64,000 nt of DNA from Dehalococcoidia bacterium (lineage in GTDB: Bacteria; Chloroflexota; Dehalococcoidia; SHYB01). Position 1 is the first letter of the stretch. Each line of letters opens with the position of its first letter. This document shows, one piece after another, positions 10,906 through 33,200 of this stretch. A program made the translations under genes and the position numbers. Under the pieces are notes generated by a model that was not told where the DNA came from, did not search any database, and saw nothing but the letters and a program-made list of their open reading frames with translations. Location of the stretch: positions 878,847-942,846 of the forward strand of contig CBDFJU010000002.1 of the NCBI GenBank assembly GCA_965248515.1, in the 5' to 3' direction.

Positions 10906-11625
10906 CTATGTGCCTACATCGGTGATCGAGCGACTCACTGAGGGGTCCGAAGCGTCCGTTGCTCTCGTGGTAGCCCACAAGTCGGCCAACAGGTCTGAAC
11001 CTATTACATCCATACGTTGGCTCAGGTACTCGAGTGCGGTTTGGTGTCGCTCTCGAGAGTAGCTTGCAACACAGTCCTCTACCACAACTGAGTAGTAATC
11101 ATGGAACAGCGCGTCCATCGCGGTCGCCTGAACACACCCTTCGCTGGTAACACCCGTGCTCACCACGGACTTCACGCCTTGACTCCTAAGGACCTGATCG
11201 AGGCGAGTACGGAGGAAACCTGTGGGGCGCCCTTTCTTTATGATGACCTCGTTCGGCGCAGGGCGCAGATCCGCGACTATCTGATGGCCCCAGGTCCCGT
11301 CAAGGCAATAGTCAGGCTCTCGGAGGTCCCCATAAGCGCGACCACGTAGGCGGATCATTGGGGGAGAGTCGCCGATGCAACCCTTCATTAGCGTGTTCTG
11401 CAAATAGATCACCAACACCCCTGCAGCTCGCGCCGTTTCCAATAAACTGGCAGCCCGTGGAATGGCCATTTGCATATCGGAGATATCTGCCCACTGTTGG
11501 GTTTGCTTCAGGCCTTCTGGGTGGCAAAAGTCGTTCTGGAAATCTACCAGCACGAGCGCCGTGTGCTCTGGGCCAACGATCTCTCTCACCGTGGTCAATA
11601 TCTCTTTTCCGGCCACCTGCTTCAT
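10906..11625 (-). CDS. Isochorismatase-family cysteine hydrolase
   Basis: ALVLVDFQNDF...VVSTGVTSEGCVQATAMDA isochorismatase/YcaC-like motifs; GAGGTG SD. Confidence 0.8.
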   Translation of the reverse strand: MKQVAGKEILTTVREIVGPEHTALVLVDFQNDFCHPEGLKQTQQWADISDMQMAIPRAASLLETARAAGVLVIYLQNTLMKGCIGDSPPMIRLRGRAYGDLREPDYCLDGTWGHQIVADLRPAPNEVIIKKGRPTGFLRTRLDQVLRSQGVKSVVSTGVTSEGCVQATAMDALFHDYYSVVVEDCVASYSRERHQTALEYLSQRMDVIGSDLLADLWATTRATDASDPSVSRSITDVGT

Positions 11626-11817
11626 TTCATCACCTCAGACAGATCCCTTCCTTTGGCGCGATGCAACCACATGTCGAAAGAGCTGGCACAGCCAGGCGCC
11701 ATGAAAAAGCCTCAGCGCCTACCACTGTCACCGTACTGGCGTCTGCTCGATAAGAGGTGGTCTCGTTTGTCTGAACAGCGCTGCCCGGTTTGATAAGTGG
11801 AATCGCGCTGCCGTGCG

Positions 11818-12645
11818 TTAGGCCGCCGCGGACTCGGCAGGCGCTCTGTCAAAGAACTGGTCCGGCGTCATTCCCCCAAGGCTCGAATGGGGCCGTCCGG
11901 CATTGTAAAACTCGAAGTACCGCCCGAGTCCAGTTCTGGCTTCCGGGACCGATTCGTAGGCTCTCAGGTACACCTCCTCGTACTTGACGCTCTTCCACAG
12001 TCGTTCGACGAACACGTTATCCTTCCAGCCCCCCTTCCCGTCCATACTGATCTGGATCTCACTGGCTTTCAGCAGGCCGGTGAAGGCATCACTTGTGAAC
12101 TGGCTTCCCTGATCTGTGTTGAATATCTCCGGCGCGCCGTGGCGTCCCAGGGATTCTTCGAGCGCCTCCACGCAGAAGTCTGTGTCCATTGTGACCGATA
12201 CCCGCCAGGCCAGCACCTTGCGGCTATGCCAGTCCATCACTGCGGCTAGGTACACGAACCCCCTGGCCATCGGAATGTACGTGATATCCATTGCCCACAC
12301 CTGGTTGGGCCTGCTCACCTCAAGCCCGCGCAGCAGGTACGGATACACCGTATGGCCGGGCCGTCGCCGGCTGGTGTTGGGCTTGCGGTACAGCGCATCG
12401 ATGCCCATCCGCCGCATCAGTGTGGCGATGTGTCTACGCCCGGAGGAGAGTCCCTCCTGGCGGAGCAGGCCTCGCATCATCCTACTGCCTGCAAACGGAT
12501 ACTCAAGGTGCAGCTCATCGATGCGGCGCATCAGCCCGAGACCGGCTTCGCCCACCGGCCGTGGCCGGTAGTAGATGCTCCCGCGGCTGATGCCCACTGC
12601 CTTTGCCTGGCGGGCGAGAGGCAGCTTGTGATCGCGGTCGATCAT
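11818..12645 (-). CDS. IS3-family transposase OrfB (rve integrase core, DDE)
   Basis: YIPMARGFVYLAAVMDWHSRKVLAW...TDQGSQFTS...LWKSVKYEEVY integrase-core motifs. Confidence 0.85.
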   Translation of the reverse strand: MIDRDHKLPLARQAKAVGISRGSIYYRPRPVGEAGLGLMRRIDELHLEYPFAGSRMMRGLLRQEGLSSGRRHIATLMRRMGIDALYRKPNTSRRRPGHTVYPYLLRGLEVSRPNQVWAMDITYIPMARGFVYLAAVMDWHSRKVLAWRVSVTMDTDFCVEALEESLGRHGAPEIFNTDQGSQFTSDAFTGLLKASEIQISMDGKGGWKDNVFVERLWKSVKYEEVYLRAYESVPEARTGLGRYFEFYNAGRPHSSLGGMTPDQFFDRAPAESAAA

Positions 12646-12947
12646 CGCCTTGCGCCCGGCAATCCCGCCTTCGTGAGCGCGGCCTCTAAAAAATCGTTCT
12701 CCAACGCAAGCTCACCGATCTTAGCGTGAAGGACCTTCATATCTACCAGCTTTTCAGCCTGCCCTGTCCCGGCGCCAAATAACTGCGCCGCCCGATCCAG
12801 CAACTGGGTCTTCCATTGCGTGATCTGGTTCGGGTGCACATCGAACTGGCTTGCCAGCTCCGAAAGTGTCCGGTTGCCGCGTACTGCGGCAAGAGCCACC
12901 TTCGCCTTGAACTCTGCCGAGTGGTTACGGCGGGGTCGTCTGCTCAT
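12642..12947 (-). CDS. IS3-family transposase OrfA (HTH)
   Basis: MSRRPRRNHSAEFKAKVALAAV...leucine-zipper C-terminus, typical of IS3 OrfA; 4-nt overlap with orfB. Confidence 0.85.
   Translation of the reverse strand: MSRRPRRNHSAEFKAKVALAAVRGNRTLSELASQFDVHPNQITQWKTQLLDRAAQLFGAGTGQAEKLVDMKVLHAKIGELALENDFLEAALTKAGLPGARR
12687..12693 (-). promoter_or_regulatory. Putative programmed -1 ribosomal frameshift heptamer U_UUU_UUA fusing orfA to orfB
   Basis: The heptamer is in the orfA zero frame; a -1 slip yields ...ENDFL-RGRAHEGGIAGRK-MIDRDHKLP... in the orfB frame. Equivalent site in copy 2 at 24977-24983. Confidence 0.55.
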
Positions 12948-13081
12948 CTCTCGCTCCTGTCTCCGAGAGCACTATCATGCCCTCAATCAGGCAGCGATTC
13001 CACTTATCCCCCTGTTCAGATTTCTGGAGCCACTTCTATAACCCCTTCCAACACGAATTGGTAAGGACCGAAAGTGTGCAC

Positions 13082-13996
13082 CTATGTTGAATGCTCTAAG
13101 CGGGGATCTAAGCGGTCCCTCGTCCAGTCCCCCAAAAGATTCACGGCAAGCACTATCAATAGCATGGCAACGCCCGGTGGGATAATCATCCATGGCGCGT
13201 CCGCCACATATGCTCGACCCTCGCTCACCATGTTTCCCCACGATGGAGCAGGCGGGGGTATACCGACGCCCAGGAAGCTCAGAGTTGCTTCCAGCAGGAT
13301 GAGTTGGCCCAAGATCAGGCTTCCCAGCACTGCAATAGAACCTACGATGTTCGGCAAGACGTGCCGAACAAGAATGTGCGGCATTGTTGCTCCAATAGCC
13401 CGGCTTGCGAGAACGTAGTCCTGAGCCATGACCGCGAGGCCCTCGCCGCGTGCTTGTCGGGCAAATCTGCTCCAATACACTAGATTCATGACAATTATCA
13501 TGTTCCAGAGCCCTGCTCCTATCGCCACTGCCAGGGCCAAGGCCAACACGAGCGGTGGCAAGGCCAGTGAGACATCGACCGCTCCCATTATCAATGTGTC
13601 TAGCTTGCCCCGTGAGTATGCTGCTATCAGTCCCAAAAGCGTGCCCACAGCGGTTGACGTTACTACGCCTAACCCCGCGGTCATCAGGGTCAGACGAGAG
13701 CCGACTATCAATCGGCTCAGGACATCTCGTCCCAGGTAATCCGTACCCAACCAATAAGTGCGCTCAGACGCGTCATCCGCAATCGATCCGGGCGGTTGCA
13801 GTGAATCTGTAAGGTACCCAGCGGTAGAGGAATGAGGCGCTAGCCAAGGAGCAAAGACCGCAAGAAACAATGCCACACTCAGGACAATGACACCAAACCA
13901 GGGTAAGCGCCGCAGCGTGCGCGCAGACGGGACAAGCAGGCGCAGCCGTTTACGGTGTTTAGGGGTCTCAACTGCCGTTTCGCCAATACTCAACAT
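13082..13996 (-). CDS. ABC transporter permease (DppC/OppC type)
   Basis: Multi-pass membrane protein with the EAA-like loop of binding-protein-dependent permeases. Confidence 0.85.
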   Translation of the reverse strand: MLSIGETAVETPKHRKRLRLLVPSARTLRRLPWFGVIVLSVALFLAVFAPWLAPHSSTAGYLTDSLQPPGSIADDASERTYWLGTDYLGRDVLSRLIVGSRLTLMTAGLGVVTSTAVGTLLGLIAAYSRGKLDTLIMGAVDVSLALPPLVLALALAVAIGAGLWNMIIVMNLVYWSRFARQARGEGLAVMAQDYVLASRAIGATMPHILVRHVLPNIVGSIAVLGSLILGQLILLEATLSFLGVGIPPPAPSWGNMVSEGRAYVADAPWMIIPPGVAMLLIVLAVNLLGDWTRDRLDPRLEHST

Positions 13997-14147
13997 GCCA
14001 TTTTCAATTCACAATCTGTTGGCCACATACTTGCGTGTAGCCCGTCTGCCCCAAAGCTGCAAAGTCCCCGGCACTCAGGAACGAATCAAGGCCGAAGACA
14101 GGCGCCTGCATCCCGGGACGACGCCCACTTTACACAGAGCGCTACCT

Positions 14148-15071
14148 CTATGCGCTTCGTATCCTCGGATCGAGGAAGCCGTACAACATGTCTACCACGA
14201 AATTGGCCAGTGCAAACATGCTCGCAAAGATCAGCACCAGCCCCATCAATGTTGGAAAGTCTCGCTGTATTGCAGAATCGAACGCCAACTGCCCAATCCC
14301 TGGCCAGGCGAAGACCACCTCTATGACAAGGGATCCTGTTAGAAAGTAGGTAACTATGACAATCCCACTATATGTCACCACTGGAATCAGTGCATTTCTC
14401 AGCGCGTGTCGAATTATCACTATACGTTCATGAAGTCCCTTGGCTCTAGCGGTGCGAACATAATCTTGTCCCATCACCTCCAACATTCCTGAGCGCACGA
14501 AACGAATCACCCCAGCCATCGGAAACACAGCCAGGGATATCATCGGTAGAATCAGGTTACTTGGAGACTCCTTTCCAAAGAAAGGCAGCCAGCGTAGCCA
14601 CACTCCAAAGATCATCACAAGCAATATTGCCAACCAAAACGATGGTGTGGATTGGGCAAGTGCAGCAAACCCCCGCACTAACAGGTCTATCACGCTACCG
14701 CGGTACAGTGCGGCCAAGAGGCCCAGTGGCACCCCTAGTATGAAAGTAAATGCGATTCCGGCTCCGGCAAGCTGCAGGGTGGCAGGGAACCGGTCCAGGA
14801 ACATATCCGCCACCTTCTGATCCGTGACGTGTGATCGTCCCAAGTCTCCGCGTACAACGTCTCGCAAAAAGAGGCCATATTGGACGTGGAAAGGTCGGTC
14901 CAGACCTAGATCCTTCCTTAGGATCTCCACGGCTTCCGGTGGGGCATATGCTGGCACAAGCAACTCCGCCGGATCTCCTGTGACTCTTGCCAGCGAGAAA
15001 GTGAAGACCGTCACGACAAGCACAACGATGACGGTCCTGAATGCTCGCTGTAACGTGAGCCGCCCCATCAC
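14148..15071 (-). CDS. ABC transporter permease (DppB/OppB type)
   Basis: Six predicted TM segments and a permease signature; immediately upstream of the DppC-like gene. Confidence 0.85.
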   Translation of the reverse strand: MMGRLTLQRAFRTVIVVLVVTVFTFSLARVTGDPAELLVPAYAPPEAVEILRKDLGLDRPFHVQYGLFLRDVVRGDLGRSHVTDQKVADMFLDRFPATLQLAGAGIAFTFILGVPLGLLAALYRGSVIDLLVRGFAALAQSTPSFWLAILLVMIFGVWLRWLPFFGKESPSNLILPMISLAVFPMAGVIRFVRSGMLEVMGQDYVRTARAKGLHERIVIIRHALRNALIPVVTYSGIVIVTYFLTGSLVIEVVFAWPGIGQLAFDSAIQRDFPTLMGLVLIFASMFALANFVVDMLYGFLDPRIRSA

Positions 15072-15111
15072 GACATCTCCATCCTCATTCCACGAAGCCT
15101 AAGCCTGTGGA

Positions 15112-16011
15112 TTAAGAGCCAGGATCGCCAGATTGAAAGCTTCGAGGGTCACGGAAAAACGTCATTACCAACTTGCTGATTTCTTGTGCCCTCCAGTAAA
15201 GGTCGTATCTATCACCGCTCTCTATCATGACTGCCGTACACTCGGGAATGAGCAGCTTCACCGCCTGCGCACGCTGAGCGATAGGACGGTTCCACGCAGC
15301 CGTGGATTGCAGCAACAACGTCGGGGCTTTGATCAGTGGCAAGCGAACATCGGCGTTGTATGTGAACACCGCCTGGAAGGTGGCAGAAATACTACGGTGA
15401 GCTCTGAGTGCATCCATGAACAAGTCATTGACAAACTCCAAATCTTCATCCGACAAGTTTTCGTCTGGTATTGCGCCTTTGGCCTGCCACAAAAGCGTGA
15501 TAGCCCGCTGCCACAATCGCACATTGTGTGACCCATCAGTTTCCAGCCGCACCACTGGAAGAGTGCCTGGGCCACCCAATGCCCGGTGACCGAGTTTGAT
15601 ATGCTCCTCTCGCTCGTCGTCGCCAATCAGGTAAGGAAGACCGTGGAGAACTAGCGCCACAACCCGCTGTGGCTGACTGGCCGCGAGTTCCGCGCCTACC
15701 GCAGCACCCGTGTGTCGCCCCAGAACTCGCACGCTGTCGAGCTCAAGGCCGTCCAGGACATGGGCGAGACTTGTGGCCAAGTCCGCTACATCAAAAGGCT
15801 CCGGAAGGGGGTCGGAGTCGCCCAATCCAGGTAGATCCACGGCAATCACCTGGTACTGTGTTGCCAGCAAGGGCATCAGGCGACGGTAAACGCGCCAACT
15901 TCGCGGAGTCTGAGGAATCAACAGGACAGGCTCGCCTTGGCCCGCTATGACACAGTGGACCTGACCTGTTGGCGTGCGAACATAACTGCGCTTCACCAGA
16001 TTCCCGCCCAC
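15112..16011 (-). CDS. Alpha/beta-hydrolase fold protein
   Basis: VLLIPQTP...VIAVDLPGLGDS...GRHTGAAVG nucleophile-elbow-like region. Confidence 0.7.
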   Translation of the reverse strand: MGGNLVKRSYVRTPTGQVHCVIAGQGEPVLLIPQTPRSWRVYRRLMPLLATQYQVIAVDLPGLGDSDPLPEPFDVADLATSLAHVLDGLELDSVRVLGRHTGAAVGAELAASQPQRVVALVLHGLPYLIGDDEREEHIKLGHRALGGPGTLPVVRLETDGSHNVRLWQRAITLLWQAKGAIPDENLSDEDLEFVNDLFMDALRAHRSISATFQAVFTYNADVRLPLIKAPTLLLQSTAAWNRPIAQRAQAVKLLIPECTAVMIESGDRYDLYWRAQEISKLVMTFFRDPRSFQSGDPGS

Positions 16012-16121
16012 TCATTGAACCCGGTACTGTGGCCGGAGACTATTCATATGAATGCTTTTAGGGCCGATTTGTGTATCCCGCCTTTGGCAGAGGAACTGCG
16101 ATGGCCAACGCGCCCCATACT

Positions 16122-16718
16122 CTAATGCGACAACGTTTTGACAAAGTCTTTCGCCTGTATCACGGCTCCGTGACGCGAGAATACCTTCTCCATGAGCACA
16201 CGGTGAAACTCGTCGTCGGCCTCGAAACAACCATCTTCCACGACCACGAGTTCGTAGTCGGCGTCGAGGGCCGAGCAAAACGTATAGAGCACAGCTCCGC
16301 TGGTTGCTACGCCCATCAGAACAAGAACATCACGTCCAAGTGCCCGCAGCACGGTATGAAGGTCCGTGGTACCGAAGGCGCTTATTCGTCGTTTCAGGAT
16401 TACGACGTCGCCTTGCTCCGGGGCAACGATGGGGTGCATCTGCACGCCCTCTGTTCCCTCCCGCATCCCGTCGGCCTGCTTCGCGGCAGCAAACGCCTTG
16501 TTTCGAGGGTTGACCTCCGGGTGCCCCTCGCGAAATGCTACACCAACGAAAAGAACAGGTATTCCACTCTTCCGAGCGGCTTCGATCACATCCTGGGCAC
16601 GATAGAGAAACTGTGTCTGCTCGCCCACGTAGCTGCCAATGATGTCTTGTTGGCAATCCAGGACGAGCACGGCCGCACGTTCCACTAGGTCGGGCGGCAT
16701 CGAAGTGCTATCAGCCAT
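16122..16718 (-). CDS. Isochorismatase-family hydrolase
   Basis: AAVLVLDCQQDI...VLMGVATSGAVLYT isochorismatase-like motifs. Confidence 0.75.
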   Translation of the reverse strand: MADSTSMPPDLVERAAVLVLDCQQDIIGSYVGEQTQFLYRAQDVIEAARKSGIPVLFVGVAFREGHPEVNPRNKAFAAAKQADGMREGTEGVQMHPIVAPEQGDVVILKRRISAFGTTDLHTVLRALGRDVLVLMGVATSGAVLYTFCSALDADYELVVVEDGCFEADDEFHRVLMEKVFSRHGAVIQAKDFVKTLSH

Positions 16719-16816
16719 CGTCTCGTTGCCTCACCCGGGAACTCGTCCGCCAAGGCTGAGGCCATCCTGCAACAGCTCAGCAGCCACGAGAAGGTATCCG
16801 GCGCTCACAATCTCAA

Positions 16817-17677
16817 CTAGCCATGGGGCGTCTGGCCCTCCGCCCCCAGATTTGCATACTCCGGCTGTCTCTTTTCCACGAATGCTCTCTGGCCCTCGAC
16901 CTCCCTTGGCGGCCTTCTCCGTGGCTGGCCGCCGGCCTCCTTCCGGAGCTCCTCAGTGTCGTACACGACATCTACCGATCTCTGAAATTCGACATGCCCT
17001 TCTTTCGTCTTGGCGATAGCATCCGGACCAAGTCTGTCAATCTCGAGAACTTCACGTGCGTATTTCAGCGCCGTTGGCATCACATCCTTCGACGGAACCA
17101 CCTCGTTCACTATGCCCCATCGCAGGCAACTCTGGGCGTCGAGTCTCCCAGCGGTAAGCTGTACCCAATTTGCTATTGCATTGGGAAGGTAGTGGTACAA
17201 GTAAGGGGGAGGGGCCAGGTTTCTGCGTTGAGCATAGGTGCCAACCCACGCATGCTCAGCCATGATGCGCAAATCACACAGGAAGAACAGCTCCAACCCG
17301 CCGGCCACAGCCAACCCGTTGATCGCGCCTATCAAGGGCTTCTTGAGAGGGTAGTGATTCCCGGGACCTGCATACGCCGGGCTGGCGGGGTCGTCCACCC
17401 CGTGGAACCCATCCGGTCCAGTCCGCGCGACATATTCCTTCATGTCCTTGCCCGCGCAGAAGGCCTTATCTCCGGCACCTGTCACAATCGCTACCCGGAT
17501 TGACGGGTCATTGTTTACGGTCTCCCAGCACGACACCAACTCGACGAATAGTTTCTCGTTCAACGCATTTAACACTTCTGGCCTATTGAGCGTAACAACG
17601 GCTATCCCGTCGTCCCTCTTTTCGAAAATGCACGTTTCGTACTGAGTCGTCTCGCCCACTGTTCCGTCCTCCTTCAC
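16817..17677 (-). CDS. Enoyl-CoA hydratase/isomerase family
   Basis: IAVVTLNRPEVLNAL...VTGAGDKAFCAGKD...GLAVAGGLELFFLCD crotonase motifs. Confidence 0.8.
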   Translation of the reverse strand: MKEDGTVGETTQYETCIFEKRDDGIAVVTLNRPEVLNALNEKLFVELVSCWETVNNDPSIRVAIVTGAGDKAFCAGKDMKEYVARTGPDGFHGVDDPASPAYAGPGNHYPLKKPLIGAINGLAVAGGLELFFLCDLRIMAEHAWVGTYAQRRNLAPPPYLYHYLPNAIANWVQLTAGRLDAQSCLRWGIVNEVVPSKDVMPTALKYAREVLEIDRLGPDAIAKTKEGHVEFQRSVDVVYDTEELRKEAGGQPRRRPPREVEGQRAFVEKRQPEYANLGAEGQTPHG

Positions 17678-17776
17678 CCCTGCCAGATTAGCTACTCAAC
17701 CCTTTTCGGAAGTCTTTTTCGGCCCCCCACCGAATTGACAAAACCGACCATGCCCGCGATGCCGCACATCACTCTA

Positions 17777-17794
17777 AGTCCCGACATGTCGGGA
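17777..17794. promoter_or_regulatory. Perfect 18-bp palindrome GTCCCGACATGTCGGGAC, possible operator
   Basis: Seen directly; lies in the 285-bp intergenic region upstream of the minus-strand crotonase/hydrolase/permease genes. Confidence 0.3.
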
Positions 17795-17865
17795 CTCAGC
17801 GTGACGCCACAGAGAGTCGCCTTTGAAAAGACCTAGCCGTTCGTTGAACTCTCGAGACTCCCAAG

Positions 17866-17908
17866 AGGAGCGGATTACTCACGAATCGGTTTTCGAAGTA
17901 ATCCGCTC
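17866..17908. promoter_or_regulatory. 13-bp inverted repeat GGAGCGGATTACT / AGTAATCCGCTCC with 17-nt spacer
   Basis: Seen directly; sits downstream of the binding-protein gene and upstream of the crotonase gene; no U-tract follows. Confidence 0.3.
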
Positions 17909-17962
17909 CCCCTGATTCGACCCTCTACCGTTCCGAGAGCGCTACTATCGAGCAGACTATTG

Positions 17963-20142: not shown

Positions 20143-20771
20143 CTAGCGCCGAGTCCCACAAGCCCCGATGCGGGTTACAGCACACTGAACTCGGTGGGGC
20201 GGTCCCTGAACGCAAGAGGTGTGATAATCCCGAAGGTGAGGGCCAGGGCCACAGCCGACCGCTCCTACCTTCTGACGCGCCTGGTTCAGGTGGCTCTGTA
20301 TCGTGCGGGGACTGAGGCCCAGACGCGCCGCTATGGTGATATCGCTGCCCCTCTCGGCGGTGCCTTGAAGCACCAACTTCTCCCGGTTTGTCAGCGTGGG
20401 CACCTTTGTGTGGTTTCGCAATGAGACGGCGGCGGAGAGCACGGTGGGGACGTAGCGGCGCTGGACTACGGCGAAGTCCGCCTTGAGTGCCCGTAGGGCT
20501 ACCGGCAGGTCTGTCCCCTGCAGGTCTGTCCCCTGCAGGTCAGATGCGATAAAGGCCACGGGGGCATGGGCGAACAGGCACTCCAGGGCCGGACCTGGTC
20601 ATCGGAGTCGACCAGGAAAGCGAATGCCAGGTCCGGCTGGCTCCTCCGTAGCTCCAGCAGGTGCAGGGGGTCGTCCATGTCCTGGAGCGGTAGGGCTAGG
20701 ACCACTACGTCCGGCAAGTACTGCTCGACCGCGACCTTCTGCCGGGCATAGTCACGGACGCCTTCGGCCAA
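20143..20771 (-). pseudogene. NarL/FixJ-type response regulator remnant (REC and LuxR HTH in different frames, 5' truncated)
   Basis: REC-like segment is ORF 20499..20771 and LuxR HTH (LTNREKLVLQGTAERGSDITIAARLGLSPRTIQSHL) is ORF 20143..20559. A TAG sits immediately 5' of the REC segment, and tandem repeats lie at the frame junction. Confidence 0.5.
20506..20543. repeat. Tandem 15-bp repeat CAGGTCTGTCCCCTG x2.5
   Basis: Seen directly, inside the decayed response-regulator gene at the frame break. Confidence 0.8.
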
Positions 20772-20843
20772 GGCTATGCCCTCCTGGTCCCGAAGGAAGT
20801 CACGCCATGGACCTCAAAAGACTGGACCTATAGGGGGACGACC

Positions 20844-21905
20844 ATGCCAGACAGGGCACATACCGTTTTCAAGACCTTCCATAGAACGCCTCTAGGTCAG
20901 ATTGTTCACGGCGATAGTCTGGACGTCCTTGCCACGTACGACGACGATTCCGTGAATCTGATCATGACCAGCCCGCCATTTGGATTGGTCCGAAAGAAGG
21001 ACTACGGGAATGTTGAGGCCAACGAATATGTCGATTGGTTCAAACCTTTCGGCGCCGAGTTTCATCGTGTCCTGACTGATAACGGTAGTCTGGTCATTGA
21101 CATCGGGGGCGCATGGAACAGGGGCTACCCCACCCGCAACCTTTACCACTTCAAGTTGCTAATTATGCTTTGTGAGGAGATCGGCTTCCACCTTGCGCAG
21201 GACTTCTACTGGTGGAACCCTTCGAAGCTTCCAACACCTGCCGAGTGGGTTACAGTGCGACGCCTCCGGGTCAAGGATGCCATCAACACCGTTTGGTGGT
21301 TGTCTAAGACGCCCTGGCCTAAGGCAAGCAACCGGCGCGTCCTCCAACCTTACAGCGCGAGCATGGAGGAGCTGCTCGAAAGAGGGTACAAAGCCAAGAA
21401 GCGACCCTCTGGCCATGACATCAGTGAAAAGTTCAGCATCGACAATGGCGCGGCTATACCGCCGAACCTCGTTGCGATTCCCAACACCGAGAGCAATAGC
21501 TTCTATCTCCGCTACTGCGAGGAGCGGGGACTCAGACCGCATCCTGCCCGGTTCCCGGCGGAACTTCCTGAATACTTCGTCCGCATGCTGACAGAGCCGG
21601 GGGATTTTGTGGTTGATCCCTTTGGTGGCAGCTGCGTGACGGGTGAGGTTTGCGAGCGCACGAATCGCCGCTGGACATGCATAGAGCTACTTGACGAATA
21701 CTGTGAAGCTGCCCTCGGCCGCTTCATTCGCGACCCGGGAGAGGTCGCCAAGCCCGTTGCCAATCCCAAGGACCCCTCCAACTACTACCGCGTGCCCCGA
21801 CCTGGCATCCTGTGGAATGGGTATCACAACGACACTCTGCCCAGGGACGGTGGTAAGAAGCGCCGCCTGAAGGTCGACACGCAGCGTGGTTCGCCGGGTC
21901 AATAG
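20844..21905 (+). CDS. DNA methyltransferase, beta-class (N4-cytosine or N6-adenine; SPPF motif suggests m4C)
   Basis: TSPPFG (motif IV) precedes DPFGGSCVTG (motif I), the order of the N4/N6 methylase family. GC content is lower than the flanks. Confidence 0.8.
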   Translation: MPDRAHTVFKTFHRTPLGQIVHGDSLDVLATYDDDSVNLIMTSPPFGLVRKKDYGNVEANEYVDWFKPFGAEFHRVLTDNGSLVIDIGGAWNRGYPTRNLYHFKLLIMLCEEIGFHLAQDFYWWNPSKLPTPAEWVTVRRLRVKDAINTVWWLSKTPWPKASNRRVLQPYSASMEELLERGYKAKKRPSGHDISEKFSIDNGAAIPPNLVAIPNTESNSFYLRYCEERGLRPHPARFPAELPEYFVRMLTEPGDFVVDPFGGSCVTGEVCERTNRRWTCIELLDEYCEAALGRFIRDPGEVAKPVANPKDPSNYYRVPRPGILWNGYHNDTLPRDGGKKRRLKVDTQRGSPGQ

Positions 21906-22083
21906 GAACTCTGCCGCGGCATCTGTCCACAGGAAGAGACCGCGAAGCGCTCGGCTTTCCAAGCCGCCTGCCTCTCGAAAACAGGCATGGAGTCCGAATT
22001 TCGGCTGTTCAACATCAGCAAGCATTCTTGGACGCCCTTTAGATGGAATGAGAATGGACCTAGCGTTATTCGAGGAGGTGGCA

Positions 22084-22620
22084 ATGCATGGCATCGGATA
22101 CAGGGACTACTGGCCTAAGGAGTGGCCTGATTGGCCAGAGGACCCCAAGGGTAGGAAGGCGGTAGAGGGCTTGTATGAGATTGGCTTGTTTATTCTCAAT
22201 GCCCCGGCTTCCCTTCGGAAGTCCCGTCTGAAACAGGCAGACGACAAAGCCCAAGACTGCTTGTCTCAGATGACAGAGGAAGAACAAAAACAGGCTAGAG
22301 TCTTGGTTGCTCTCTGGGAACGGAACGCGCTGATACAACAGCATATCCGTTATGAGGAAGAGAAGAAGGGCCTGGATGCGGTCGAACACTTGTGGGCCGA
22401 ATGGGACTCTGCTGGGATGCAGATGCATAAGGCGGAAGAAGATGCGTCGCAACTAGGCCTTGAAGGCAACGAATACTTCAGAAGCCGTGTGGAACGCTTC
22501 TATATCTTGCAGGAGGAGAAGGACGAAGTCGGGCGATACCATAACTTCCCAGATCACAGCGAATTGCGAGAACAATGGTACTCGCGAAAGCCGATCACGG
22601 CTCCGCTACCTTGGGCTTGA
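22084..22620 (+). CDS. Hypothetical protein (179 aa) in the low-GC methyltransferase islet
   Basis: ATG 22084 is preceded by GAGGAGG (5 nt spacer); acidic and charged composition; no motif I recognise. Confidence 0.5.
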   Translation: MHGIGYRDYWPKEWPDWPEDPKGRKAVEGLYEIGLFILNAPASLRKSRLKQADDKAQDCLSQMTEEEQKQARVLVALWERNALIQQHIRYEEEKKGLDAVEHLWAEWDSAGMQMHKAEEDASQLGLEGNEYFRSRVERFYILQEEKDEVGRYHNFPDHSELREQWYSRKPITAPLPWA

Positions 22621-22788
22621 GACCGAATGCTCGCGCTTTGCAAGCGATTCGAGGTCAGCAGGCATAGGGCCAAGAGGCCACCGGCTGGTCGCAAGCTCGC
22701 AAAAGCCGGCATCGTCCTCACCGTTGCGTTTGGAGTAGCTGGGATCACTGTGGCTGTTATTTTGGACAGATTCTAGCCACTTGAGGGG

Positions 22789-23664
22789 ATGAGGGCGCTT
22801 GACCATTGTGAATTGATGGAATCACCTGCCGTACCCTACATAGCTGTCTACAGCGCGGCCATCGAGCCTCCTAATAACCCCTTTACGGTTCAAGAGGCTG
22901 ATCTCTGCTTGACCTTTACGGCTGGTCCCTTGGCCTTCGCCTATTCAGTGCCGTTGAAGTCCTTTGGACCAGGAAGCGTCGCCGTGATCCTCGGCGAGCG
23001 TCAGTTTAGTCTGCCAAGAGGGTCCTATATCGTGATCGAGATGTTGGCGAACGTCAGCAAGGAATCTGAGCGGGAACGTTTGGCACTCAGAGTGGCCGAT
23101 GTCGCCAGTCTGCTGGCACTGCGTCACTCACATGTCCTCGACGAGAAACTCTTCGAAGGCGTTGTAAACGCCGCAGACAAGGCTTTGATGTGGCGTGAGG
23201 GGCCTATGACCTTCACGGCAGCACCCGCCGTGTCACCCGAGGAAGTGGCTGACGGCTTTGCAAGCGACTTCGCTTCCATTCAACAACTGGATGCGGAGAG
23301 GCATCGACGTCTCCAATTGGCCTCTAGGTGGTTCCGCCGAGGACACGAAGCGATAAACCAAGTGGACAAATTCCTGTTCTGGTGGACAGTACTGGAAATC
23401 TATCCTGGAAAGGGAGAGAGCAACATAGTCAGAAACGTCACACAGGTGCTAAGGAATGGAGTGTGTCCTGAATTGGAACCTCAAATCTTGCAAGAGAAGC
23501 TTAGGATTGGTCGCATATACGGCGAACGCAAGAGAATAGTCCACGATGGGAGAGCGTTTGTCGCCTTCGACGATGAGTACTTTCAAGGCTGCCTGGAGAG
23601 GCTACGTGCTATCGCGACGGTAAGTCTACGTCTGTTGGGTGGTCTCCCGGTCGGCACGACCTAA
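22789..23664 (+). CDS. Hypothetical protein (291 aa) in the methyltransferase islet; possible restriction/defence partner
   Basis: Clean ORF with low local GC; alternative start 22816. No confident domain assignment. Confidence 0.5.
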   Translation: MRALDHCELMESPAVPYIAVYSAAIEPPNNPFTVQEADLCLTFTAGPLAFAYSVPLKSFGPGSVAVILGERQFSLPRGSYIVIEMLANVSKESERERLALRVADVASLLALRHSHVLDEKLFEGVVNAADKALMWREGPMTFTAAPAVSPEEVADGFASDFASIQQLDAERHRRLQLASRWFRRGHEAINQVDKFLFWWTVLEIYPGKGESNIVRNVTQVLRNGVCPELEPQILQEKLRIGRIYGERKRIVHDGRAFVAFDDEYFQGCLERLRAIATVSLRLLGGLPVGTT

Positions 23665-23778
23665 AGCAGTATGTTGAAGGGGACGTAGATCGAAACTAGA
23701 CGGTTCATGTGACGAGACCAACACCGATGCTGACATGGACGACTGCCCATCAGGACTCTCTTTTGCTACTCTCGACAC

Positions 23779-24234
23779 ATGGCTCTCTCCGACCGACAAC
23801 TACTCGACTCCCTCAGCCGAATGCCGTTCAGCGACTCGGCAGAGCTAGCAGGCATCCTGGGCGAGCCTCACGCGACAGTCCACCGCGCTTTGACCGGCCT
23901 GTTGGCCGACGGCAACGCGGGGCGGGTCAGCCACGGCACCGCCCACCTGCCTTCGAGCCAAAGGTACTACCTGACGACCAAGGGCATCAGACAGGCCACA
24001 GGCCTCCTCGACTTTGAGACGCCCTCGGACTTCGTGCGAGCCTACCCGCTGTCCGGGGAGTGGCTGGCGCTGCTCATCCGCCGGATGGACGCGGTGGCCG
24101 CCGTCTACCGACTCGCCGCCTTGATGTCTCCCGGGACCCGCTCCCGCCGGTCGCACGTGGTGTTAGCAGAGTTTATGCCCATCGAGGCATATAGGAACGG
24201 CGTGGGCCGACGGACACCACGACGAAGTCCCTGA
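23779..24234 (+). CDS. Hypothetical protein with a probable winged-helix DNA-binding N-terminus
   Basis: AELAGILGEPHATVHRALTGLLADG is HTH-like; weak SD. Confidence 0.35.
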   Translation: MALSDRQLLDSLSRMPFSDSAELAGILGEPHATVHRALTGLLADGNAGRVSHGTAHLPSSQRYYLTTKGIRQATGLLDFETPSDFVRAYPLSGEWLALLIRRMDAVAAVYRLAALMSPGTRSRRSHVVLAEFMPIEAYRNGVGRRTPRRSP

Positions 24235-24722: not shown

Positions 24723-25028
24723 ATGAGCAGACGACCCCGCCGTAACCACTCGGCAGAGTTCAAGGCGAAGGTGGCTCTTGCCGCAGTACGCGGCGACCGG
24801 ACACTTTCGGAGCTGGCAAGCCAGTTCGATGTGCACCCGAACCAGATCACGCAATGGAAGACCCAGTTGCTGGATCGGGCGGCGCAGTTATTTGGCGCCG
24901 GGACAGGGCAGGCTGAAAAGCTGGTAGATATGAAGGTCCTTCACGCTAAGATCGGTGAGCTTGCGTTGGAGAACGATTTTTTAGAGGCCGCGCTCACGAA
25001 GGCGGGATTGCCGGGCGCAAGGCGATGA
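24723..25028 (+). CDS. IS3-family transposase OrfA (copy 2)
   Basis: Protein differs from copy 1 OrfA at one residue; frameshift heptamer TTTTTTA at 24977-24983. Confidence 0.85.
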   Translation: MSRRPRRNHSAEFKAKVALAAVRGDRTLSELASQFDVHPNQITQWKTQLLDRAAQLFGAGTGQAEKLVDMKVLHAKIGELALENDFLEAALTKAGLPGARR

Positions 25029-25535
25029 TCGACCGCGATCACAAGCTGCCTCTCGCCCGCCAGGCAAAGGCAGTGGGCATCAGCCGCGGGAGCATCTACT
25101 ACCGGCCACGGCCGGTGGGCGAAGCCGGTCTCGGGCTGATGCGCCGCATCGATGAGCTGCACCTTGAGTATCCGTTTGCAGGCAGTAGGATGATGCGAGG
25201 CCTGCTCCGCCAGGAGGGACTCTCCTCCGGGCGTAGACACATCGCCACACTGATGCGGCGGATGGGCATCGAGGCGCTGTACCGCAAGCCCAACACCAGC
25301 CGGCGACGGCCCGGCCATACGGTGTATCCGTACCTGCTGCGCGGGCTTGAGGTGAGCAGGCCCAACCAGGTGTGGGCAATGGATATCACGTACATTCCGA
25401 TGGCCAGGGGGTTCGTGTACCTAGCCGCAGTGATGGACTGGCATAGCCGCAAGGTGCTGGCCTGGCGGGTATCGGTCACAATGGACACAGACTTCTGCGT
25501 GGAGGCGCTCGAAGAATCCCTGGGACGCCACGGCG
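25025..25535 (+). pseudogene. IS3-family OrfB, 3' truncated by insertion of or rearrangement at the IS481-like element
   Basis: Matches copy 1 OrfB through ...EESLGRHG, then reads into foreign sequence. Confidence 0.7.
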
Positions 25536-27164
25536 TGTCGATGTCCAGCGATTATGTCCGCCTAAGTGGTCAGGGAAAATGTCCATCTAGGCCGCTGTCA
25601 TACCATCGGACTGTGATACGCGGGACCTGCCCCTGGTGCGCATCATGGGCGGGCTCTTGGCTTCGGCGTACTTGCGGACCATGTTCCTGTGGATGCCCAA
25701 CTCCCTGGCGATTGCCCGAATGGCGAGGCCCCGAAGCTTAGCCTGCTGCACGGCCTTCCACCGGACCCTCTGTCGCGGCGTGGGTTTCCTGCGTGGCGAT
25801 GCCGGAGGCTTGCAAACTCTGCCGCCGCCGTTCAATGTGGCGCTGTCGGCCTCGATGGCGTCGAGGGATGCCAAGCTCTCCTTGGAGTGGCTGCCCACGC
25901 CGTTGACCCTACGCTCAAGGCCGGGGCCATATCGGAGAGGACCATTGGAGGCACGGAGAACTCCAGGGCGCGGCGGCGCCTCCTGTGTGGGGATCGTGCG
26001 TCCCCGGTACTGCACGAGGAGCTGACCGTCCAGGCCCTCATGGACCTCCAGCTGCGCTCCGGCGTAGCTAGGCCGCTCCTTACCAGGCAGCAGCTGCAAG
26101 GTACGCCAGTTGTACTTGACGGTGTTGTCCCTGGCCACCTTGCGGCGGTGCTTGAAGCAGAGTATCTGGTCCAGGGACACCGATGACTCCATAGAGCGGT
26201 AAGCAACGCTTGAGTGCTCTGCCGGAACCCCGAACTTCTCGTTGAAGCGCGGCAGGAAGCGGTGCAGGACTTCATTGGCCTCGTCGATGGTGGTGACGCC
26301 CGCCAAGCGCAGCTCGGTCACCAGCCGGTCCTGGAATGTCCCCGCCGTCCGCTCGACCCGGCCCTTCGCCTGCGGTGACCTGGCGAATATCTGGCGTATC
26401 CCCAGCTCCTCCATGGCGCGGGCGAACTGGGTTGGCCCGGCCGGCTTCTGGCGAGGCTCTCCAGTATGCTTGAAGACCGCGTGTCGGTCGCTGTAGACGG
26501 CCAGCGGTATCCCGCATTGCCGGATCAACCCCTCCATGAGAAGGAAGTAGCCGCGGGTGTCCTCCTCCTGGCTGAACAGAGCGTCAGGCACAGTGCCGGT
26601 GGCGTCGTCCACGGCCAACAGCAGGACGAACCGGGGTCCTTGTTCCCCCAGCCACCGATGGTGGCTCCCATCTATCTGCAGCAGCATCCCTTCTTGGGCC
26701 ATGCGTTTGCGCCGGACACGGTGTCTGGGCGGCCGGCGGCGGCGGGGGCTGTCCACGCCGGCGCTGACCAGGATGCGGCGCACCGTAGAGCGGCTCAGGT
26801 CGATCCCCTCCCGTTCCATCAACAACTCGGTCAGATGCGTATGGTTCGTTCCAGCGTAGCGAGTGCGGGCCAGCTGCACCACGTAAGTCATCTTGGTCTC
26901 CGTCGTGGTGTTGGCCGGTCGGCGGCCACGATTCCCGTGGGCGAGTGCGGCGGCGCCCTCCTTCCTCTAGGCCGCCAGAATACGCCTCATGTGGCGTTCG
27001 CTCACTCCCAGGACCTCGGCCGCCTGACATACCGGCACCTGATCTGCCAGAACGCTGTTGAGCACCTGAAGTCTCGTCTGCTCCTTCTGCGTCAATGTCA
27101 CTCCTTCCATGGGATGACATTTTCGCTGACCAGTTAGCTACTGACATAATCGTAGAACAACGAC
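25536..27164 (-). mobile_element. IS481-like/ISNCY-like DDE element (~1.63 kb) with 23-bp imperfect terminal inverted repeats
   Basis: Left IR TGTCGATGTCCAGCGATTATGTC at 25536; right IR reverse complement TGTCGTTGTTCTACGATTATGTC ending at 27164. The two flanks differ and no target duplication is seen. Confidence 0.6.
25587..27109 (-). pseudogene. DDE transposase (HTH + rve core) interrupted by an in-frame TAG at plus 26966-26968
   Basis: Reads MEGVTLTQKEQTRLQVLNSVLADQVPVCQAAEVLGVSERHMRRILAA-TAG-RKEGAAALAHGNRGRRPANTT...; homologues as I recall have Tyr at the stop position. The downstream part is track ORF 25587..26891. Confidence 0.6.
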
Positions 27165-28707
27165 ATTCAATGGCCAGCACTTCTGTACCATGTCCGCCAA
27201 TCGTATAGTGGTGTGATAGCCCCTGTTCTTCAATGGCATGACGCAGGCTCCGGGACCCGCTGGTCACATAAGGCGGATTCGTGAGGATGAGATCATAAGG
27301 GGCATCGTTCACCCGTGCGAAAGTCCCCAAATTGGACCGCAGCAGCCGGAAGACGTTGTTAAGCGCGCCAGCTGAGAACGCCTGCAGGTGTTCCGGCGAG
27401 TGGTATTTCGTCAACAGGTCCGATAGGTAGATAAGCATATTGGCCTTGGCCAGGATAATCGTCCGCTCATCCTCTTTTTCGTCGCTGCCCTTGTCGTAAC
27501 CGACCATTGTGATGGACGGTGCCACCACTCCATCGACAGGCTCAAACCCGCGCAATAGATGAGGGTTCGCAGATATACACTCAAGGATGAACCCGCCCAC
27601 GCCACAAAACGGGTCGCATATCCTGGCTCCATCCCTCAACTGCTTGGCGTCCGACATCTCCACCATCGCTCTCACTACGTTGCGGGGAGTGAAGTATTGC
27701 CCGAGGAACTTGATTCCTGCGTTCTGGCGTAGGAACGCTTCGTATAGCCGGGTCTTGAACTCCTTATTGATGTATCTGAGCGACCCAAAGCGACTGTCGT
27801 AGTCCTGCAAGTGCCGTAGCACTTCACCGAACAGATTGGCTTGTGCCGTGTTCGGCTGCCCGTTTTCATTTACGAAAATGGTGCCGTTTATGATGGTCGT
27901 GCCGTCGTCGCTTTTCGGGAATAGCGCCTGGACCTCTTTGCGACAGATGTTGGCGTAGTAGGTCAGTGCGGCGGCGGCCGATACAGCGTGGAGGCGTTCG
28001 CAAACGGAGTTGAAGTTGTTGTGGGATTGCAACACACCTATGTCGCTTAGAAACTTGAATACAAACAACTCGACGACGTTATAGAGACACTTTTCAGGCT
28101 CTTTGCCGGTATTGACCCATATTTTCTGCCACATCGTCTTGGCCAGCGCGGACGGGTCTAGGACTTCCGGCATCGATAACTGGTCGTTGGTGTCACTCAG
28201 GGAATGGTCGATCTTGTCAACAAGAAGTTCCAAGTCTGTCGCGGCTTCTGCCGAAATAGAACCGTCTTCTATTGGCCTCACATCGAAGATGCGCGTGAGT
28301 ACGTCCCCTTCCTCTGTCCGAATCCGGTTCCCGGTCAGGGCGTTGATCCAGTAAGTGGTGTTGCCAGAGGTCACTATCAATAGCTTGCATAGCTGCCTGG
28401 CCACTGCAAGTTCCTGGTCAATTGCTACCTGAACTTGCTCTGGAGTTCTGAGTTCGGATGGTGACTTGTATTCAACAATGGCCTTGACTCCACCACCGAG
28501 GAGCACCACAACCCCGTCGGGCTTCTTGTTGGCGATGTTCTGAGTAAAGGAACCTTTGACCACACCGGCATTTCTGGGTTGCCGGAGCGTAGAACTGCCA
28601 AGTCGATAAAAGAGGTATCTCCCAAGAGGCTTAGGTGCCGTCTGTAACAGTTCCTCACTCATCGCGGCCACGCTGGGTCTTCGAGTACCGCCGTTTCTTG
28701 GGAACAC
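27165..28707 (-). pseudogene. Type IIG-like restriction-modification enzyme, 3' truncated by the IS481-like element
   Basis: N-terminal PD-(D/E)xK-like motif (PDGVVVLLGGGVKAIVEYK), then gamma-class N6-adenine methyltransferase motifs (DPFCGVGGF ... LTNPPY). The frame runs into the IS inverted repeat at 27164, and the remaining track ORF sequence is IS-derived. Confidence 0.6.
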
Positions 28708-30236: not shown

Positions 30237-33200
30237 CCTTCACGTATGGAGCCACCTCCGGCGGGACCGTCAAGGCCGGAACGACGACCCTTGTGTCGAT
30301 GGCACAGGTCGGCGCCGATGGCGTCTCCGCCTTAGCTACAACCACGTTCACCTATCAGGACCACACCGTTTATTACGAAGACTCGGGAGGAGTCCAATTC
30401 GATGAGGATTGGCCGTTCCTCACGAAGATCGAGAACGGCTACGGCGCCTCGGTGACGATGACCTATACCAGCATCCCAACGGGGACGCCCAAAAGTATTT
30501 GGACCCGAACGGCCGTGACCGAGCGAGTCGTTGACCCGGGCGTTGGCCCCACGGCCAGCACCTCGATTGCGTATACCGGATCGCCGACTTATTACAGCTA
30601 CGGCGATTACACGGTACACGAGTTCCGAGGCTTTGCCACCGTAACGAGAACGGACGCCGCGGGGCATTACTCCCAGCACGGCTTCTACACGACCGGGAGT
30701 GACGACGAAGACAAGCTCACTGGTCGCGAAAAGGAGGTGAAGCGCTACGATAGTGCGGACAACCTCCTGACCTCGACTGTGAACACCTGGGGTTGGGATT
30801 ACACGTGCTGCGATAGTCCAGACGCGACCGTGACCTATTACATTCACCTCGACCAGGTAGATCAGACCACCGGCTCTAAAACCAGCCGCACCCGGTACAG
30901 CTATGGCGCCCATGGCAACCTCGACCGGGAGAACCACGACGGTGACACGAGCACGACGTCCGACGACTGGACGCTGTTCCGGGACTTCAACGTCAATACC
31001 ACCGAGCACATCTTGAGCACAGTTGCGTCCACTTCTGTCTTCGAGGGCGACAAGACCGTCGACACCGGCTCCGGCAAAATGGCCGAAACCTTCTTCTTCT
31101 ACGACGGCAACAACCTCGATGCCGATCACCAGGACGATCCGTCCATAGGCAACGTCACACGGGTCAGGACGATGATCGACGGCTCGAACTATGCCAACAC
31201 CTACGCCACCTACGACACCTATGGCAACCGCTTGACGGCCACGGATGCCAATAACGCCACGACCACGTGGGTCTACGACTCCTACTATCACTCATTGCCG
31301 ACCAAGGAGACGTACTCTGCAGTCGGCACAAGCCCCGCCATGGAGGAGGAGGCTACCTGGGACTTCGGCACCGCCAACATGGCGTCGTTGGAGCGACGCG
31401 AATGGCGAGACCACCACCTACGAGTACGACACGTTCGGCAGGATTACCAAGGTCGTCAGGCCCGGCGACACGTCGGCCAGCGCGACGGTCGTGTACAACT
31501 ACAACTCTTTTGGCACGATCGAACAGCAGAACCTGGAGACCGTCGCTCGGATCGACGATGCCAGCACAACTTGGTCCAAAGCGTACTTCGATGGACTAGG
31601 ACGAACCGTGCAGGTCCATTCCGAGGGCGACACGGAGGGGACGACCACGTACGTCATTGTCAGCGGCACGACGGACTTCAACGACCTTGGTCTGGTGGAC
31701 AAGGGATACCTGCCCCAACGGCTGGGCTCCACGACGCTAAATGGTTTCGAGGCGCCTGGGGCCGGCTGGGAGGCCACCACTTACGCCTACGACGGCTTGG
31801 CGCGGGTATCTTCGACGGCGGCGCCGGACGGGACAGTGGTCACCCACGACTACAGCACGGCTTGGCGGGACACCGTCACTGACGCCAAGGGCTACAAGAC
31901 GCGCTACATCAACGACGCCTTCGGGCGGCTCGTTCAGGTCGACGACTACGACGCCTCTGGGACGACGGTCTACGCCAGCACGACCTATGTCTACGACGTG
32001 ATGGGGAACCTCACCCAGGTCACCGACCCGTCGAACAACGACACGACGATGACCTACGACATGCTGAGTCGCAAGGTCGTGATGGACGACCCCGACATGG
32101 GGGTCTGGCGCTACACCTATGACGACAACGGCAACTTGACGGCCCAGAACGATGCCAAGAATGCTACTATCACGCTCACGTACGACGAGTTGAACCGCCT
32201 CACAGCGAAGACCTATCCGTCCGGCTCGAGCACCACCGACGTGACCTTCGCTTACGACGCCACGACCGCCAGCAACAAGGGACTGGGCCGCCGCACTGGC
32301 ATGACGGGAGATGCCACCGCGACATGGGTCTACGACAGCCGCGGGCGAGTTGCGACGGAGACTATCACGATCAATGGCGACGCCCAGACCTTCGGCTACA
32401 CCTACGACGGCGCCGATCGCCTCACCGTCGTCACGTACCCCGGCGGCGAGGTCGTGACCCAGACCTATAACGACCGTGGTCTCCCCTCGACACTCACCGT
32501 CGATGCCTGGGCCATCGGTCCGGCGGGCTACAATCGCCTGGGCCAGTTGACGAGTCTCAGTCTGCCCGGCCAAAAAATCGAGATCACTAACGACTACTGG
32601 GGCTTGGAGCACAACCCCTCGTCCGACACCAACTTCGGCCGTCTCTACCAGACCAAGGCCCTCAGATTAGGGAGTACGCGTCAGGACCTGACGCATCAGT
32701 GGGACGCAGCCGGCAACCTGACCAGCCGAACCGACAGCCTCGGCTCCGTCGAGACCGAGGACTTCACCTACGACTTCCTCGACCGGCTCACGGGGGCGAG
32801 CAACGCCTACTCGCGCTCTTATGCCTACGACGAGATCGGGAACATCACCGACTTCGACGGGTCGTCTTACACCTACGGCTCTCAGCCACACGCCGTGACT
32901 ACCGCCGGAAGCACCACCTACGCCTACGATGCGAACGGCAACATGACCTCTCGAGGTTTTCAAGACCTCACCTGGGACGACGAGAACCGACTTACGCGAG
33001 TGGGGCTAACGAATGGCCTAATCGGGCGGTGGGGTCTCGACGAGGGATCGGGTTCGACGGCGTCCGACACGAGCGACAACTCGAACGATGGCACCCTCAC
33101 TAATGGTCCTACCTGGACCACAGGCCAACATGCCAACGCGTTGGATTTCGACGGCACAGACGACTACGTCAACATCGGCGACCCGGCGGGCCTTGACTCG

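Follow-up and report, generated by a model that had tools for sequence, protein, structure and literature searches.

We analysed a 64,000-nucleotide stretch of DNA from a Dehalococcoidia bacterium (GenBank assembly GCA_965248515.1, contig CBDFJU010000002.1; hereafter the window), in which a segment of low GC content carries a DNA methyltransferase (MTase) gene followed by two open reading frames, ORF2 and ORF3. Positions 20799–24164 are probably the internal remnant of an approximately 11-kb integrative mobile element of Dehalococcoidia, in which the restriction endonuclease gene has been lost and the MTase left as an orphan. ORF2 has been interrupted by a nonsense mutation, and ORF3 encodes a protein with a HEPN-like C-terminal domain. 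An earlier sequence-only reading of the same DNA had described three genes on the plus strand, all of which are present, and had placed them in a horizontally acquired restriction–modification (R-M) or defence module. The segment contains the following features.

20799–20833, plus strand: last ~35 bp of an Mrr_cat endonuclease gene, including its stop codon (left junction)
20844–21905, plus strand: MTase gene, open reading frame of 353 aa
22084–22620, plus strand: ORF2, truncated product of 178 aa, ATG at 22084
22621–22776, plus strand: 3′ part of ORF2 beyond the TGA, in frame, encoding a linker and a transmembrane helix (translation and alignment)
22789–23664, plus strand: ORF3, 291 aa
23779–24164, plus strand: 5′ fragment of a Replic_Relax gene, ~113 codons (tblastn)

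The origin of the segment is seen in its alignment, at about 98% identity, to the internal part of an ~11-kb block in L001 and L002, two metagenomic contigs of related Dehalococcoidia. The block (L001 5855–16864) is shared by the two contigs at 98% identity whereas the DNA flanking it differs, and the presence of the same block in two different flanks identifies it as a mobile element. Horizontal acquisition of the segment is thereby borne out. The block opens with a ribbon-helix-helix (RHH) gene (66 aa), an Mrr_cat protein gene (432–456 aa), the MTase, ORF2 and ORF3; continues with genes for a Replic_Relax protein (556 aa), a 153-aa protein, a 155-aa protein and a DUF3267 protein; and ends with a second RHH gene (75 aa) and a terminal large serine recombinase. 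A third relative, L016, whose ORF3 is 87% identical, carries the order RHH, Mrr_cat, MTase, ORF2 (229 aa, intact) and ORF3. The element resembles known serine-recombinase/Replic_Relax integrative elements in that the L001/L002 block ends with an RHH gene and a Resolvase/Recombinase/Zn_ribbon_recom protein and carries a Replic_Relax gene; the window differs in keeping neither the recombinase nor most of Replic_Relax. When every protein of the element was compared with the window by tblastn, the MTase (100% identity), ORF2 (100%) and ORF3 (98%) were recovered, together with residues 1–113 of the L002 556-aa protein (81%), itself a match to Pfam Replic_Relax (E = 1.7e-7). Apart from the last ~35 bp of the endonuclease gene, the same searches revealed no further trace of the endonuclease or RHH genes in the whole window, which also lacks the serine recombinase and the two ends of the element that L001 and L002 retain. 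Because the recombinase and most of Replic_Relax are gone, the window copy is immobile.

The left junction lies at 20799, 35 bp ahead of the endonuclease stop codon: alignments to L001, L002 and L016 are near-identical from this position on and unrelated to its left, where the DNA is a truncated regulator gene. At the right junction, ~24164, the alignment diverges, and beyond it lie IS3-type and other insertion sequence (IS) genes, a second truncated DNA MTase and an RHS protein. A deletion or rearrangement would have taken out the RHH and endonuclease genes along with the first ~14 codons of the neighbouring LuxR-type regulator, and everything past Replic_Relax codon ~113 would have been replaced by the IS-rich region. 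The Replic_Relax fragment (23772–24164 in this comparison) is far more diverged from L001 and L002 (81% amino acid identity) than the MTase–ORF3 part (98–100%), a contrast that points to mosaic recombination close to the right junction. In L016, ORF3 and the Replic_Relax gene are separated by inserted genes for a 467-aa protein and for a DEAD/UvrD double-helicase protein of 1716 aa (10968–17920), and a short N-terminal remnant of Replic_Relax is present at 11013–11096.

Base composition sets the segment apart. GC content across 22.0–23.7 kb is 53.7%, in agreement with the 50–55% first estimated and among the bottom 0.3% when the 64 kb are scanned in 1.7-kb windows. The flanks, put at about 65% in the sequence-only reading, do reach 64.6% and 66.2% in the adjacent ~0.5 kb on either side; beyond that the figure does not hold, the mean of the whole window being 60.4%. 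Taken in its entirety, the 3.4-kb fragment has a GC content of 56.6%, at the 9th percentile.

The MTase is an intact and strongly constrained enzyme that is now orphaned, its cognate endonuclease gene having been lost from the window. Its catalytic motif SPPF (aa 43–46) lies N-terminal to the S-adenosylmethionine-binding motif DPFGGSC (aa 258–264), the arrangement of the beta class; this class assignment, already made from the motifs, is confirmed by matches to PF01555 (N6_N4_Mtase; E = 2.9e-39, 135.7 bits against a 26.7-bit cutoff) and to the PADLOC MTase_II model (E = 8e-120). At the amino acid level it is 100% identical to the L002 copy, and the ratio of nonsynonymous to synonymous substitution rates (dN/dS) against L016 is 0.08. 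The closest solved relative is M.PvuII (PDB 1boo; E = 2e-108 over aa 12–296). Homology suggests that the protein is probably an M.PvuII-like N4-cytosine enzyme, and because of this relationship the most likely product would be N4-methylcytosine, placed in CAGCTG or a sequence like it.

In all three intact relatives (L001, L002 and L016), a 432–456-aa Mrr_cat protein of the PD-(D/E)xK type, preceded by an RHH gene, is encoded directly upstream of the MTase, its gene ending 10 bp ahead of the MTase start. This endonuclease scores 30.4 bits against Pfam Mrr_cat (cutoff 21 bits; E = 4.5e-7). Since the intact relatives carry it in this position, we take the gene lost from the window to be the cognate nuclease of the MTase. 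No endonuclease gene adjoining the window MTase was found by tblastn, and the window accordingly lacks a complete type II R-M system. The module proposed in the sequence-only reading does derive from an R-M cassette, but what is left is a decayed remnant rather than a working R-M operon. Its further suggestion, that the two proteins downstream of the MTase supply the nuclease or effector parts, did not stand up, the relatives having a dedicated Mrr_cat endonuclease upstream of the MTase.

Comparison with the PvuII system reveals both kinship and divergence. In its alignment to M.PvuII the MTase shares the beta-class order of motifs (TSPPF followed by FGGS), and the intact relatives, like the PvuII system, carry an adjacent endonuclease gene and a small upstream gene for a DNA-binding protein. 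R.PvuII is a short protein of about 157 aa, whereas the partner in the relatives is the 432–456-aa Mrr_cat protein, without a sequence match in the PDB; the small upstream gene encodes an RHH protein, not an HTH (helix-turn-helix) C-protein; and the MTase has a C-terminal extension of ~55 aa, with the endonuclease deleted in the window.

ORF2 is preceded, just as described from the sequence, by a perfect Shine–Dalgarno sequence, GAGGAGG; it lies at 22072–22078, with a 5-nt spacer to the ATG at 22084. Its product, previously given as 179 aa, is 178 aa long and is the truncated product of a broken gene. An in-frame TGA at 22618–22620 stands where homologues of 226–240 aa have a conserved Trp (PLPWA-stop-DRML against PLPWAWDxML), and the reading frame runs on undisturbed to a TAG at 22774–22776. 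Because the TGA replaces a conserved Trp while the frame continues, ORF2 is not an intact gene. The same TGA occurs in the window, L002 and P0049, all full-length homologues have the Trp, and L001 carries an additional 7-bp deletion. Judged from these alignments, ORF2 is a pseudogene, decaying throughout the lineage of the window, L001 and L002. A longer, GTG-started ORF2 of 244 aa (21886–22620) was considered and rejected because homologues all begin at the equivalent of ATG 22084.

The 51 ORF2 homologues, from Dehalococcoidia only where a name is given, are mostly 226–240 aa long and reach ~50 residues past the window protein, through a linker, into a strongly hydrophobic C-terminal helix. 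This transmembrane helix, GIVLTVAFGVAGITVAVIL, has a mean Kyte–Doolittle hydropathy of 2.51 over 19 residues. The family forms an all-helical bundle with a conserved N-terminus rich in Trp and Pro (YWPxEWPxWP), and its dN/dS of 0.14–0.20 indicates purifying selection over its history. An intact ORF2 would therefore be a tail-anchored helical membrane protein, and the nonsense mutation would inactivate or truncate the window copy. The absence of recognisable domains noted for ORF2 and ORF3 at the outset was upheld: neither has a significant match in Pfam, NCBIfam, PHROGs or PADLOC. A fold search with ORF2 returned neither a nuclease fold nor any other informative match.

ORF3 is intact, with the 291 aa first reported, and evolves under purifying selection (dN/dS 0.22–0.27); its conserved part begins at Met10 (22816). 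The predicted structure (mean pLDDT 86.9) comprises a beta-rich N-terminal domain (aa ~14–125) and a helical C-terminal domain (aa ~150–283). Within the latter we noted the Rx4H motif R247-KRIV-H252, encoded at 23527–23544 and continued by x-G254, which fits the Rx4–6H signature of HEPN domains. R247, H252 and G254, together with E203, are invariant in 24 close relatives and in 21 further relatives down to 19–26% identity. A profile search of 1.84 billion representative sequences recovered 564 members with an E-value cutoff of 1e-3 and 205 with one of 1e-10, a family of ~560 clusters at 50% identity, and nearly all 564 are 280–300 aa long and have both domains. Against PDB sequences, the profile matched only two ApeA HEPN proteins, weakly (E = 0.057 and 0.082), with both motifs co-linear in these alignments; Foldseek of the model against the PDB gave nothing significant, and tblastn against plasmid and phage collections gave no match. 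Together, the modelled HEPN-like fold and the invariant Rx4H motif make a HEPN-like C-terminal domain well supported but not proven.

ORF3 would most likely be a metal-independent ribonuclease in which dimerization forms a composite Rx4H site, and the N-terminal beta domain may serve as the sensor or regulator of that site. Encoded on mobile DNA beside R-M genes, such a protein would act as an effector of abortive infection or of a second line of defence, rather than as a subunit of an R-M enzyme. There is precedent for this arrangement: at least 16 HEPN clades occur in R-M neighbourhoods, where they have been proposed to provide a second line of RNA-targeting defence (Anantharaman et al. 2013, PMC3710099). 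Like the R-M-linked HEPN proteins of the PrrC/EcoprrI paradigm, ORF3 is a predicted Rx4H HEPN protein beside R-M genes on mobile DNA. It differs in having no ABC-ATPase or other known sensor domain, and its R-M linkage is seen in a single lineage and in a remnant next to another R-M type, rather than in the family as a whole.

ApeA, as the only PDB match of the ORF3 profile, invites comparison. It is a single-gene anti-phage HEPN nuclease of ~600 aa that targets the tRNA anticodon (PDB 9hxj, 9hxm; bioRxiv 10.64898/2026.01.26.701840), is mostly helical, with N-terminal, Mid and split-HEPN domains, and assembles into decamers or dodecamers (bioRxiv 10.64898/2026.01.26.701840). An '...LW..LE' helix and an 'RiY..R..ivH.G' motif are co-linear between ApeA and the ORF3 profile, and in both proteins an extra N-terminal region is fused to a C-terminal HEPN domain. 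ORF3, however, has 291 aa and a beta-rich N-terminal domain, against the helical N-terminal and Mid domains of ApeA, and PADLOC gave no match to its ApeA models at E up to 0.1. Since the E-values are weak and the architecture differs, ORF3 resembles ApeA without being a member of that family.

The genomic surroundings of the homologues bear on what ORF2 and ORF3 do together. The three window genes occur together in L001, L002 and L016, and a PvuII-type MTase stands beside ORF3 only in this window/L001/L002/L016 lineage; in most contexts examined ORF3 lacks the MTase, which is absent beside the homologues in L003, L007–L012, L015 and L017. The ORF3 gene lies ~1 kb upstream of an RHH gene and a serine recombinase in L003 and L008. 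In L017 it is found between IS66 copies in a defence island with HigB, Eco57I-type R-M, ThsB-TIR and PDDEXK genes, and in L015 between ribonucleotide reductase and malic enzyme; the L012 homologue, from the methanotroph Methylocucumis oryzae, has no mau genes in its vicinity. In L010 it directly follows a tyrosine integrase beside an ImuB (IMS)/DnaE2-like polymerase cassette (L010 2291–9821), a mobile-element context different from the serine-recombinase one.

ORF2 has more than one R-M neighbour. In L018 and L019 it follows a 965-aa Eco57I-like gamma-class MTase at a distance of 73 bp; in L021 it is near a 616-aa homologue of that enzyme, and in L004–L006 and L020 no MTase is nearby. Remnants of ORF3 follow the ORF2 homologues in L004–L006 (aa 9–44) and in L018 and L019 (aa 8–103). 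In L013, ORF3 is split by an insertion of ~1.2 kb into aa 7–159 (8316–8780) and aa 158–289 (10001–10396), and in L014 the alignment is restricted to aa 156–258. From these loci we conclude that ORF2 and ORF3 are an ancestral pair that travelled beside two unrelated R-M gene types. Each also persists without the other: ORF2 without ORF3 in L020 and L021, ORF3 without ORF2 in L017, where ORF2 is deleted, and in the distant homologues. Repeated independent inactivation of the kind seen in ORF3 is typical of costly conflict genes.

These contexts also allow other explanations of the locus to be weighed. ORF2 and ORF3 could be a toxin–antitoxin or addiction pair of the mobile element, independent of R-M, with ORF3 as HEPN toxin and ORF2 as its neutralizer. 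We judge this unlikely, as ORF3 stays intact despite a broken ORF2 (window, L001 and L002) or a deleted one (L017), distant ORF3 homologues never have ORF2 nearby, and a membrane-anchored protein of ~230 aa is unlike MNT or other known HEPN antitoxins. Co-occurrence is not obligate in the other direction either, with ORF2 found without ORF3 in L020 and L021. Strict toxin–antitoxin dependence is ruled out, because ORF3 has been repeatedly inactivated and the genes survive singly. Closer to the original proposal, the MTase, ORF2 and ORF3 might together be a complete R-M or defence operon of three genes, with ORF2, ORF3 or both as the nuclease or effector partner. The co-orientation and adjacency of the genes in the window, L001, L002 and L016, the nuclease-type (HEPN-like) fold of ORF3 and the position of ORF2 downstream of DNA MTase genes of two unrelated classes would fit such an operon. 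We nevertheless see little chance that it exists: in intact relatives a dedicated Mrr_cat endonuclease gene precedes the MTase by 10 bp, ORF2 is a pseudogene in the window, L001 and L002 and has no nuclease fold, HEPN folds are typical of RNases rather than restriction DNases, and the homologues in L003, L007–L012, L015 and L017 stand without this MTase.

A metabolic or housekeeping role has to be considered as well. MauJ (PF17419) is a Pfam family of unknown function named for a gene of methylamine-utilization clusters, and a MauJ-type accessory function for ORF3, with ORF2 and ORF3 as mere passengers, would account for the weak matches to PF17419 among its relatives (22 of 24; best E = 6e-8), for the homologue in the methanotroph M. 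oryzae and for the housekeeping context in L015. The families are also alike in length (~280–300 aa), and the weak local matches of most ORF3 relatives cover the first HEPN helix. The window protein itself, however, scores 14.6 bits, under the 28-bit gathering cutoff, more distant ORF3-family members have no MauJ match, and no mau or methylamine genes lie near any homologue examined, L012 included. The invariant residues are those of the HEPN catalytic motif, the gene is found repeatedly beside recombinases or IS elements and repeatedly inactivated, and no literature linking MauJ to HEPN was found. We give this explanation hardly any credence. A bolder proposal would unite ORF2 and ORF3 in an abortive-infection module of two genes, associated with R-M, so far undescribed and for the most part restricted to Dehalococcoidia and Chloroflexota, that combines a tail-anchored membrane protein with a compact beta-domain–HEPN RNase; the ~560-cluster family, including MauJ-like proteins, would then be an unrecognized HEPN defence or toxin family. 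As a whole we regard this proposal as doubtful.

The reading we prefer, that of a decayed mobile R-M cassette with an effector-like ORF3 beside it, has points against it as well. An assembly chimera at the deletion junction is possible. Mrr_cat domains are also typical of methyl-dependent type IV enzymes, and the putative pairing of this endonuclease with the MTase is drawn solely from the 10-bp spacing and the conserved gene order. Depletion of CAGCTG in the window is only mild: 14 sites occur where 21.9 are expected, which makes it the ninth lowest among the 64 six-base palindromes. No defence-system sequence model in PADLOC matches ORF2 or ORF3, and ORF3 homologues are also found amid housekeeping genes, as in L015. 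As a proxy for a live PvuII-type system, CAGCTG avoidance proved unremarkable; its weakness is consistent with the absence of live restriction and is not diagnostic.

Immediately left of the segment, on the opposite strand, lies the truncated regulator gene.

20175–20798, minus strand: pseudogene of a LuxR/GerE-family HTH regulator (Pfam GerE match and alignment with P0244)
20505–20541, no strand assigned: 15-bp tandem repeat GCAGGTCTGTCCCCT, 2.5 copies (TRF, 100% matches)

This neighbour is a decayed LuxR-type regulator. Its fragments match Pfam GerE (PF00196; E = 4.1e-9, and 9.2e-10 after frame correction) and GerE itself (PDB 1fse; E = 0.002), consistent with a C-terminal LuxR/GerE HTH. The frame-corrected protein aligns end to end, at 55% identity, with P0244 (221 aa), its single database homologue, which is intact and has a GerE domain only. 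The gene had been described as the remnant of a NarL/FixJ response regulator that had lost its 5′ end and carried a frame break at a 15-bp tandem repeat. The decay and the LuxR/GerE HTH are confirmed, but no receiver domain was detected: Pfam Response_reg matches neither the fragments, the frame-corrected protein nor P0244, and no response regulator appears among the PDB matches. Both the pseudogene and P0244 have Ala at the position expected for the phospho-acceptor Asp (VVLALPL). With no detectable receiver domain, the label 'response regulator' is not established. Relative to P0244, ~14 N-terminal codons are missing, so the 5′ loss is real but not large. The repeat is also real, with 2.5 perfect copies that on the minus strand encode an in-frame DLQGT duplication where P0244 has one DLQG(A) copy. 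The frame breaks, however, number two (~20586–20598 and ~20254–20264), and neither lies at the repeat; the first is ~50 bp from it.

The stretch from 20 to 38 kb of the window is an IS-rich junkyard, within which our locus is an ordinary decayed remnant. An IS3-type orfA (HTH_Tnp_1) and orfB occupy 24723–25741; the rve domain of orfB breaks off after 59 of the 102 profile positions, apparently truncated by the neighbouring element. At 27100–28707 on the minus strand is the N-terminal part of a gamma-class N6 DNA MTase (PF02384, E = 5.9e-11; PADLOC mad2 and MTase_I matches), whose frame runs into an IS-like 434-aa ORF at 25587–26891; it is the second R-M-type gene in decay here, 3 kb away from the first. 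The plus-strand product of 31245–34829 (1194 aa) combines six RHS repeats with a Laminin_G_3 domain and resembles a polymorphic toxin; the adjoining ORFs of 552 and 565 aa have no Pfam matches. Farther along, an rve-type transposase gene (37226–38215, minus strand) is enclosed by an inverted repeat of 411 nt (36772–37182 and 38319–38730), scored as two blocks of 358 nt and 53 nt, both with 100% complementarity. The repeat far exceeds normal IS terminal repeats in length and may have arisen by inverted duplication or as a fold-back artefact of assembly.

A promoter and terminator scan yielded no signal exceeding the shuffled expectation. At gathering thresholds, Rfam reported no family in the window, and no tRNA attachment site lies near the segment; ARAGORN predicts a 93-nt tRNA-Ile(gat) at 50167–50259 and an 87-nt tRNA-Leu(gag) at 51964–52050, against the zero Rfam families.

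These results change how the locus should be annotated. The MTase is best described as an orphan that remained when a mobile PvuII-type R-M cassette decayed, rather than as a component of a live defence operon, and the flanking 'response regulator' as a LuxR-type pseudogene with no detectable receiver domain. What remains of interest is the uncharacterized HEPN-like ORF3 family, including MauJ-like proteins, together with its membrane-protein neighbour ORF2. ORF3 marks a compact two-domain family of ~560 clusters with an invariant Rx4H motif that defence and family databases do not recognize as HEPN. Should the family prove to be RNases, it would provide a functional hypothesis for MauJ-like proteins and a candidate effector for Dehalococcoidia, whose repertoire of mobile elements and defence genes has been little studied.

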